A DNA stretch of 64,000 nucleotides, taken from assembly GCF_041886205.1 (NCBI RefSeq), contig NZ_CP169029.1; one strand, 5' to 3'. Source of the stretch: Escherichia coli (GTDB lineage: Bacteria; Pseudomonadota; Gammaproteobacteria; Enterobacterales; Enterobacteriaceae). Position 1 is the first letter of the stretch, and every line of letters begins with the position of its first letter. The position numbers and the translations under genes are program-made. The notes below the pieces were generated by a model that was not told where the DNA came from, ran no database searches, and saw only the letters and a list, made by a program, of their open reading frames with translations. Below, piece after piece: positions 32,810 to 32,948 of this stretch.

Positions 32810-32948
32810 ACACTAACGCCGTTCTCAACGGGGTGCCACGCGGACGCGTGCGCTGAGAAAATACCCGTCGAACCTGATCCGGATAACGCCGGCGAAGGGA
32901 TTTGAGGCTCCTTCTCAAGTCCTTTGCCACTCTTTTTTGAGGTGCAAA
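32810..32948 (+). ncRNA. sroA: TPP (thi-box) riboswitch in the thiBPQ leader (SroA region)
   Basis: Conserved thi-box elements ...gggtgccacgcggacgcgtgcgCTGAGAaaatacccgtcgAACCTGATCcGGATAATGCC-like (ggataacgccggcgAAGGGA) directly upstream of thiB. Confidence 0.85.

Follow-up and report, generated by a model that had tools for sequence, protein, structure and literature searches.

Our analysis suggests, with a probability of about 0.9, that positions 32786-32951 of the window, i.e. the whole stretch of 64,000 nucleotides of Escherichia coli DNA analysed here, represent the ordinary E. coli thiBPQ control region, composed of a weak sigma-70 promoter, a TPP riboswitch leader and the thiB start, with an islet inserted upstream. 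The riboswitch is the already known thiB/tbpA TPP riboswitch (SroA), located beside the already known EspY2 locus, and has nothing new in itself; as the thiB TPP riboswitch is among the best-studied translational riboswitches it is of little importance here. The junction of the islet resolved at the level of single bases is a small addition to a known locus. The insertion leaves core promoter and riboswitch intact, alters the final codons of sgrR and exchanges the whole upstream context, constituting a natural experiment on upstream-context effects at a weak promoter. The genes are arranged in the order leuLABCD, setA, sgrS/sgrT, sgrR, pentapeptide-repeat gene, thiBPQ, yabI and araC, and several commensal and animal E. 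coli strains show 99.9% identity over positions 20000-44000. The features are collected in Table 1.

Table 1. Features of the sgrR-thiB region with their positions in the window
Feature	Position	Strand	Basis and remarks
sgrR	29604-31262	+	NCBIfam PRK13626 SgrR, 1125 bits; coordinates from RefSeq of L003/L088
Acquired islet, 1,525 bp, GC 0.42	31256-32780		Alignments with BL21-derived Rosetta2, MG1655, an O157-like strain and the near-identical ET201
Terminator-like hairpin with T-run	31683-31710	-	11-pair stem followed by TTTAAGTTGG; just downstream of the EspY2-like gene; consensus match only
EspY2-like pentapeptide-repeat gene, 283 aa	31726-32577	-	ORF; Pfam PF00805, E = 2.9e-28
thiB -35 hexamer TTGCTG	32786-32791	+	Placed from the TSS with a 17-nt spacer; same in islet-free strains
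thiB -10 hexamer TACACT	32809-32814	+	-12..-7 relative to the TSS
TPP riboswitch aptamer (THI element)	32819-32918	+	Rfam RF00059; annotated as 'TPP riboswitch' by RefSeq at the corresponding site of all related genomes
thiB TSS, +1 G	32821	+	Inferred from K-12 identity
SroA-equivalent RNA	32821-32913	+	Within the TPP riboswitch leader
Antisequestering (anti-P1) hairpin	32897-32923	+	GGGAUUUGAGG/UCUCAAGUCCU; predicted, ViennaRNA MFE and centroid
SD-sequestering hairpin	32922-32949	+	CUUUGC..CUC with GAG..GCAAAG; predicted fold
thiB (tbpA), periplasmic thiamine-binding protein, GTG start	32949-33932	+	TIGR01276, 637 bits; RefSeq of wlxctx60 (99.9% identical strain)
thiP, thiQ	Downstream of thiB, end 36200	+	RefSeq annotation of wlxctx60

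Identification of the thiB TPP riboswitch

The Rfam covariance scan proposed as a check by the original prediction yielded a match to the TPP family RF00059 spanning the complete model (positions 1-105 of 105) with 65.8 bits, above the gathering score of 54.3, and with E-values of 1.1e-10 (whole 64-kb window against 4227 families) and 3.2e-12 (local search). This score is far above what is expected by chance, so the TPP aptamer is real, and a permissive local Rfam scan of positions 31200-33100 revealed no family besides TPP. All sequence elements characteristic of the aptamer are present, i.e. the CUGAGA pyrimidine-sensor segment (CTGAGA, 32853-32858), the thi-box (AACCTGATCCGGATAACGCCGGCGAAGGGA, 32871-32900), for which we demanded P4/P5 with ACCUGAUC.GG.UAA..CC.GCG.AGGGA, and the P1 helix, in which CUCAA (32824-32828) is paired with UUGAG (32902-32906) in the cmscan alignment, thereby closing the aptamer. 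The aptamer is separated from thiB by 31 nt and lies in a leader upstream of a thiamine transport gene, followed by an expression platform; the leader comprises 128 nt from the TSS to the GTG. The claim of the original prediction that the thi-box aptamer is intact right up to thiB is borne out by the positions of CTGAGA, thi-box, P1 and GTG. The span for which the claim was made (32810-32948) extends from inside the -10 hexamer to the last base before the start codon and covers the whole leader.

Promoter and leader in comparison to K-12

Alignment of positions 32784-32960 (-37 to +140) revealed 176 of 177 nucleotides being identical to MG1655, the sole difference being located in the apical loop of P3 (32843), which carries G in the window and T in K-12. 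No difference was seen to islet-free BL21 or to O157-like strains with the islet, and the segment is found in 5398 of 5426 complete E. coli genomes, in all but two of these with at least 95% identity. As the leader differs from K-12 at one loop base, what has been characterised for the thiB/tbpA riboswitch applies unchanged, and the insertion upstream has left the riboswitch untouched, as had been proposed.

The putative promoter matches the consensus at 7 of 12 hexamer positions (3 of 6 in the -35 hexamer) with a spacer of 17 nt and ends 6 nt before the 5' end of K-12 sroA; its hexamers are weak, and it is not listed by a consensus promoter scan. A TACA[C/A]T sequence is present at the -10 position, in fixed distance to P1, in 72 of 80 Enterobacteriaceae species representatives. 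We infer the TSS and the use of the promoter in this strain from the identity with K-12. In MG1655, sroA (75516-75608) starts at 75608; this 5' end precedes the thiB GTG by 128 nt and maps to G32821. The numbering used for tbpA fits this assignment, placing G35 in CUGAGA (position 32855 of the window), G121 in the SD sequence and U130 in the GUG (PMC11487190), and for Salmonella 5' RACE located a TSS shared by SroA and tbpA 129 nt upstream of the start codon (PMC3511261). The riboswitch is also known as the short RNA SroA (Vogel et al. 2003, as cited in PMC10578472). The natural tbpA promoter was reported to be weak and not to be regulated by TPP, with expression from pBAD being about 10-fold higher (PMC11487190).

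A model for the regulation of thiB by TPP

For positions 32896-32960, ViennaRNA calculations resulted in a z-score of -2.76, and the segment is predicted to form the two hairpins of Table 1. The antisequestering hairpin is built from the 3' strand of P1 together with a portion of the linker, and it is in competition with both P1 and the 5' arm of the sequestering stem; the same stem was described in PMC10578472 and, as anti-P1, in PMC11487190. In the predicted sequestering hairpin, the SD sequence GAGG (32939-32942) and the G of the GUG start are paired with CUUUGCCACUC. For the bare aptamer, the MFE fold does not contain the ligand-bound structure and the z-score is about 0, as expected for a ligand-dependent RNA.

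Studies on K-12 established a competition of anti-P1 with both P1 and the stem that sequesters the SD sequence (PMC10578472 = Berman et al. 2023; PMC11487190) and that TPP stabilises P1, resulting in occlusion of the SD sequence, less translation and a secondary drop of the mRNA (PMC10578472, PMC11487190). Repression upon TPP binding was demonstrated experimentally for the K-12 leader, from which the leader in the window differs at one base of the P3 loop (PMC11487190, PMC10578472); from the native promoter it amounted to about 2-3-fold (PMC11487190). The mechanism itself is taken over from these papers; the sequence identity and the predicted hairpins come from this analysis. According to this mechanism, established for the K-12 sequence, the 3' strand of P1 and the linker form the antisequestering hairpin in the absence of TPP, leaving the SD sequence free and allowing thiB to be translated. 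Upon binding of TPP, P1 closes and releases the linker, which then pairs with GAGGUGCAAAG (32939-32949), burying the SD sequence and the start codon, so that translation stops and the mRNA level falls secondarily.

Structure and junctions of the islet

Homology to islet-free genomes stops after ...CCGGATCC (31255) and restarts at ATG[G]ATTGCTGG (32781-32784), the islet being located between this sequence and the sgrR end (...GGATCC). With a GC content of 0.42 compared to 0.52-0.58 in the flanks, it occupies the sole free slot between the last sgrR codon and the thiB -35 hexamer. Positions -38..-36 of K-12 are taken by the TGA stop of sgrR, immediately next to the -35 hexamer; sgrR of the window has gained one codon and ends with ...PPDPE-TAG (GATCCTGAGTAG) compared to ...PPDP-TGA in K-12. 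The right edge of the islet is found 2-5 bp upstream of the -35 hexamer. The core promoter is base for base that of islet-free strains, core promoter and leader are untouched by the islet, and all context upstream of about -40 has been swapped from GC-rich sgrR coding DNA to AT-rich islet DNA, the AT content over -60..-40 being 0.71 in the window and 0.33 in MG1655.

The original prediction had also considered that the native thiB promoter context was replaced or displaced. This is only partly correct: the core promoter is kept (-35, -10 and +1), and the context from about -40 upstream has changed. Identity of promoter and leader in island-negative strains, with the insertion lying further upstream, had been named there as the result that would speak against this claim. 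The identity is indeed found for core promoter and leader; the insertion does not lie further upstream, its junction being 2-5 bp from the -35 hexamer.

We looked at the islet ends for traces of the insertion process. The sole flanking repeat, T[A/T]GCTGG, is imperfect, 7 nt long and found at either junction; for a target-site duplication it is too short to exclude chance. A 24-nt, 75%-complementary pair (31271-94/32638-61) was rejected as terminal inverted repeats, as it is one of 29 such pairs in AT-rich DNA and thereby at chance level.

The islet carries a single gene, which encodes the EspY2-like pentapeptide-repeat protein and is oriented divergently to thiB with 243 bp between its ATG and the thiB TSS. 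Over residues 1-181, the protein is 79% identical to that of the O157-like espY2 locus; at the DNA level, identity to genomes with an annotated espY2 amounts to 94-97% over the upstream region and the part encoding the N-terminal half, the homology being found at the same locus. The counterpart is listed by RefSeq under 'pentapeptide repeat-containing protein' or under 'T3SS effector EspY2', the latter in O157, and the EspY2 locus between sgrR and thiB has already been catalogued among the O157 effector loci. A literature search on EspY2 returned gene-survey papers only, none of them dealing with an effect on thiB or with expression in islet-bearing strains. Near the N-terminus the translation contains WETLRNLF (residues 47-54), which we take to resemble the WEX5F-type motif of translocated Salmonella effectors and which might serve as a lead only for translocation by a T3SS.

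Some further observations concern this gene. It contains a 15-bp tandem array with 5.1 copies (31874-31949) encoding SD(I/T)D(M/L) pentapeptides. Positions 20000-44000 of the window are 15 bp longer than in the 99.9% identical relatives (24,001 compared to 23,986), and we suspect the array to be the source of this difference in length. In the relatives, RefSeq/PGAP annotates the gene as two features, a CDS of 97 aa and a 'partial' pseudogene, which abut at 12020/12021 on the same strand. A perfect 10-bp palindrome (ACTCTGAGTT/AACTCAGAGT, 32590-32612) is located 13-35 nt upstream of the ATG beside the GGAG ribosome-binding site; three of its positions differ in the O157-type islet without compensation.

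Possible consequences for thiB transcription

The exchange of the upstream sequence may change thiB expression. AT-rich acquired DNA commonly recruits H-NS. The islet might therefore alter thiB transcription, either by its AT-rich right end (TTTTTTAAT, -60..-52) acting as an UP-like element that would raise promoter activity or by H-NS recruitment that would silence it, and the set-point of thiamine uptake would then differ between islet-bearing and islet-free strains. The position of the junction at about -40, the shift in AT content over -60..-40 and the weakness of the natural tbpA promoter, owing to which upstream context could matter (about 10-fold more expression from pBAD, PMC11487190), are all consistent with such an effect. 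However, read on the top strand, the A/T tract is a run of T without a match to the UP consensus, and the core promoter and the leader are strongly conserved in islet-bearing as well as islet-free strains. We regard an effect of this type as possible though rather unlikely; it would add to the main explanation and not replace it. If true, it would couple a virulence-associated islet to vitamin B1 uptake. A consensus promoter scan of the right end of the islet listed no promoter on the + strand; as the same scan also missed the thiB promoter, it speaks neither for nor against a promoter within the islet.

Improbable, and clearly more so, is a main effect by transcriptional insulation instead of a promoter change, i.e. 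that thiBPQ is partly fed by read-through from sgrR in islet-free strains and that the islet with its convergent gene and putative terminator would cut off this supply. In K-12, the sgrR stop and the thiB TSS are just 35 nt apart with no terminator in between, and an operon sgrR-sroA-tbpA-thiPQ has been predicted, this unit having been inferred computationally (quoted in PMC8743547). Upon nitrogen depletion, however, sgrR mRNA was raised 6.5-fold whereas thiQ was not, and the authors placed thiQ outside that operon (PMC8743547); loss of read-through is therefore an unlikely consequence of the insertion.

Distribution of the islet and direction of the change

The right arm of the islet was found in 1045 of 5426 complete E. 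coli genomes (~19%), with the same junction among the matches listed. At least 80% of the 2-kb query, corresponding to the long form present in the window, is covered in 207 genomes of this E. coli set. At least two length forms of the islet exist. In strain PD7 (L004, 448-1253), the greater part of the islet has been replaced by IS1, with 53 bp remaining beside the thiB promoter. Another strain, GN25, carries IS1 inserted in the pentapeptide gene.

A search with ThiB using one genome per species resulted in 80 Enterobacteriaceae loci, and none of these 80 species representatives, E. albertii and two further Escherichia species among them, has an EspY2-like homologue near thiB. These three species have the K-12-type junction, and the compact junction ...CC(A/T)T(G/A)A-TTGC... 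is shared by them with Citrobacter, Salmonella, Enterobacter, Klebsiella and others. Among the 72 representatives whose -10 hexamer can be recognised, 57 have the sgrR stop 23-26 nt upstream of it. As the outgroups have the compact arrangement and no EspY2-like gene, sequence comparison shows the compact sgrR-thiB arrangement to be ancestral and the low-GC 1.5-kb segment to be a derived insertion, in accordance with what had been proposed from the window. It is highly improbable that the compact K-12 arrangement arose by secondary deletion of an EspY2-like gene ancestral to E. coli at this site: the patchy occurrence of the islet (19% of genomes), its length forms and the IS1-mediated loss in PD7 would fit, but the gene is absent from the outgroup genera with their K-12-like junctions, the GC content of the islet is deviant, and the loss in PD7 has left a 53-bp scar and IS1 and not a clean junction.

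Three apparent exceptions were dismissed. The distance between the sgrR stop and the aptamer suggested upstream insertions in about 20 species; according to the alignment most of these are inside P3, and the distance was remeasured relative to the -10 hexamer. The gap of 789-855 nt in C. koseri is an artefact of a break in the sgrR tblastn match, the junction being compact. A disrupted promoter in E. coli PapRG-06-5, suspected because the match starts 17 nt into the segment, was likewise rejected, the strain belonging to a divergent lineage with the compact arrangement. For this strain (L087) we noted that the -35 hexamer and the first part of the spacer are outside the match and that no setA is annotated between leuD and sgrT.

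Insertions at related loci of other Enterobacteriaceae

The slot between the sgrR stop and the -35 hexamer holds further elements. Salmonella enterica subsp. diarizonae (L025, 4640-4780) has a ~145-bp palindromic MITE-like element with the ends AGCCTTGT…ACAAGGCT exactly between the sgrR stop and TGATTGCTG (-35), the same slot that is used by the E. coli islet, and smaller inserts are present in this slot in Raoultella (+24), Siccibacter (+32), L085 (+123) and some Citrobacter (+10-12). With the EspY2-like islet (19% of E. coli), IS1 derivatives, the ~145-bp palindrome and the smaller inserts in Raoultella, Siccibacter and others as occupants, the slot may be used recurrently. The combined proposal that AT-rich islet DNA placed at -40 may retune thiBPQ transcription in E. 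coli, UP-like or by H-NS, and that the slot is recurrently used across Enterobacteriaceae is speculative, and we consider it somewhat less probable than the transcriptional effect taken for itself.

Outside the window, the TPP aptamer of thiB was seen to contain a ~125-nt ERIC-like repeat within its P3 stem-loop in species of Citrobacter, Pseudocitrobacter and Raoultella and in relatives of these (L008, L013, L015, L026, L034, L036, L048, L053, L075 and L076; leaders 100-250 nt upstream of thiB, which is at ~5000). The insert contains GTGAATCCCCAGGAGC and GTGACTGGGGTGAGCG, which we take to be ERIC-PCR primer sequences. P1, P2, CUGAGA and the thi-box are intact in these aptamers, and in the MFE fold the insert forms a long hairpin extending P3. 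Rfam at the gathering threshold misses the aptamer in five of five ERIC-bearing loci scanned (L008, L013, L026, L048 and L075). Citrobacter sp. wls619 (L013) has a second ERIC-like insert in opposite orientation (~4860-4990) in the loop of the SD-sequestering hairpin, between CCTTTGCCACC and TGAGGTGCAAAGTG, resulting in a leader of 381 nt compared to 131 nt. A different P3 extension of ~65 nt (…CATTCAAGTTGC…GCAACC…) is present in Klebsiella oxytoca, K. michiganensis and K. indica (L068, L072 and L083), the extended aptamer of L068 still being detected by Rfam with 59.6 bits. A literature search revealed no paper tying ERIC to riboswitches. ERIC elements inside P3 of a riboswitch, once also in the SD-sequestering loop, are more interesting than the finding in the window itself.

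Further observations in the window

The Rfam family 'PssrA, plasmid-encoded Shigella sRNA A' matches positions 1591-1680 on the - strand with 104.9 bits on what is a chromosome. The match covers the 3' end of ftsA, the spacer between both genes and the initial codons of ftsZ (ORFs 1660-2922 and 448-1599), and the family name is misleading at the ftsA-ftsZ locus. Two matches to naRNA4 (REP-derived nucleoid-associated RNA) are located on the + strand at 41754-41819 and 48765-48844.

Comparison with known systems

Compared to classical genomic islands, the EspY2-like insertion shares the deviant composition and the absence in relatives; neither an integrase nor a transposase nor a tRNA target was found on it. 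It is best called an islet and not a classical genomic island. Its protein resembles the Salmonella SPI-2 effectors PipB2 and PipB by a weak C-terminal pentapeptide match (NCBIfam PRK15196, E = 8.9e-11; PRK15197, E = 2e-10); membership in these equivalog families was rejected with scores of ~40 bits compared to cut-offs of 354 and 274.

The closest counterpart of the islet is the O157:H7 EspY2 locus, which has in common with the window the insertion site, the right junction and the 240-bp divergent region beside the thiB promoter. The O157-type espY2 is shorter, encoding 189 aa (570-nt CDS) in an islet of ~1.0 kb, whereas the form in the window encodes 283 aa with a longer pentapeptide-repeat C-terminus and has ~0.5 kb more 3' DNA. 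The control region itself corresponds to the K-12 thiB (tbpA) TPP riboswitch/SroA, with which it shares the locus, the putative -35 and -10 hexamers, the assigned TSS base, P1 and the thi-box as well as the antisequestering stem, the SD-sequestering stem and the GUG start. It differs upstream of about -40, where the 3' end of sgrR is found in K-12 and islet DNA in the window.
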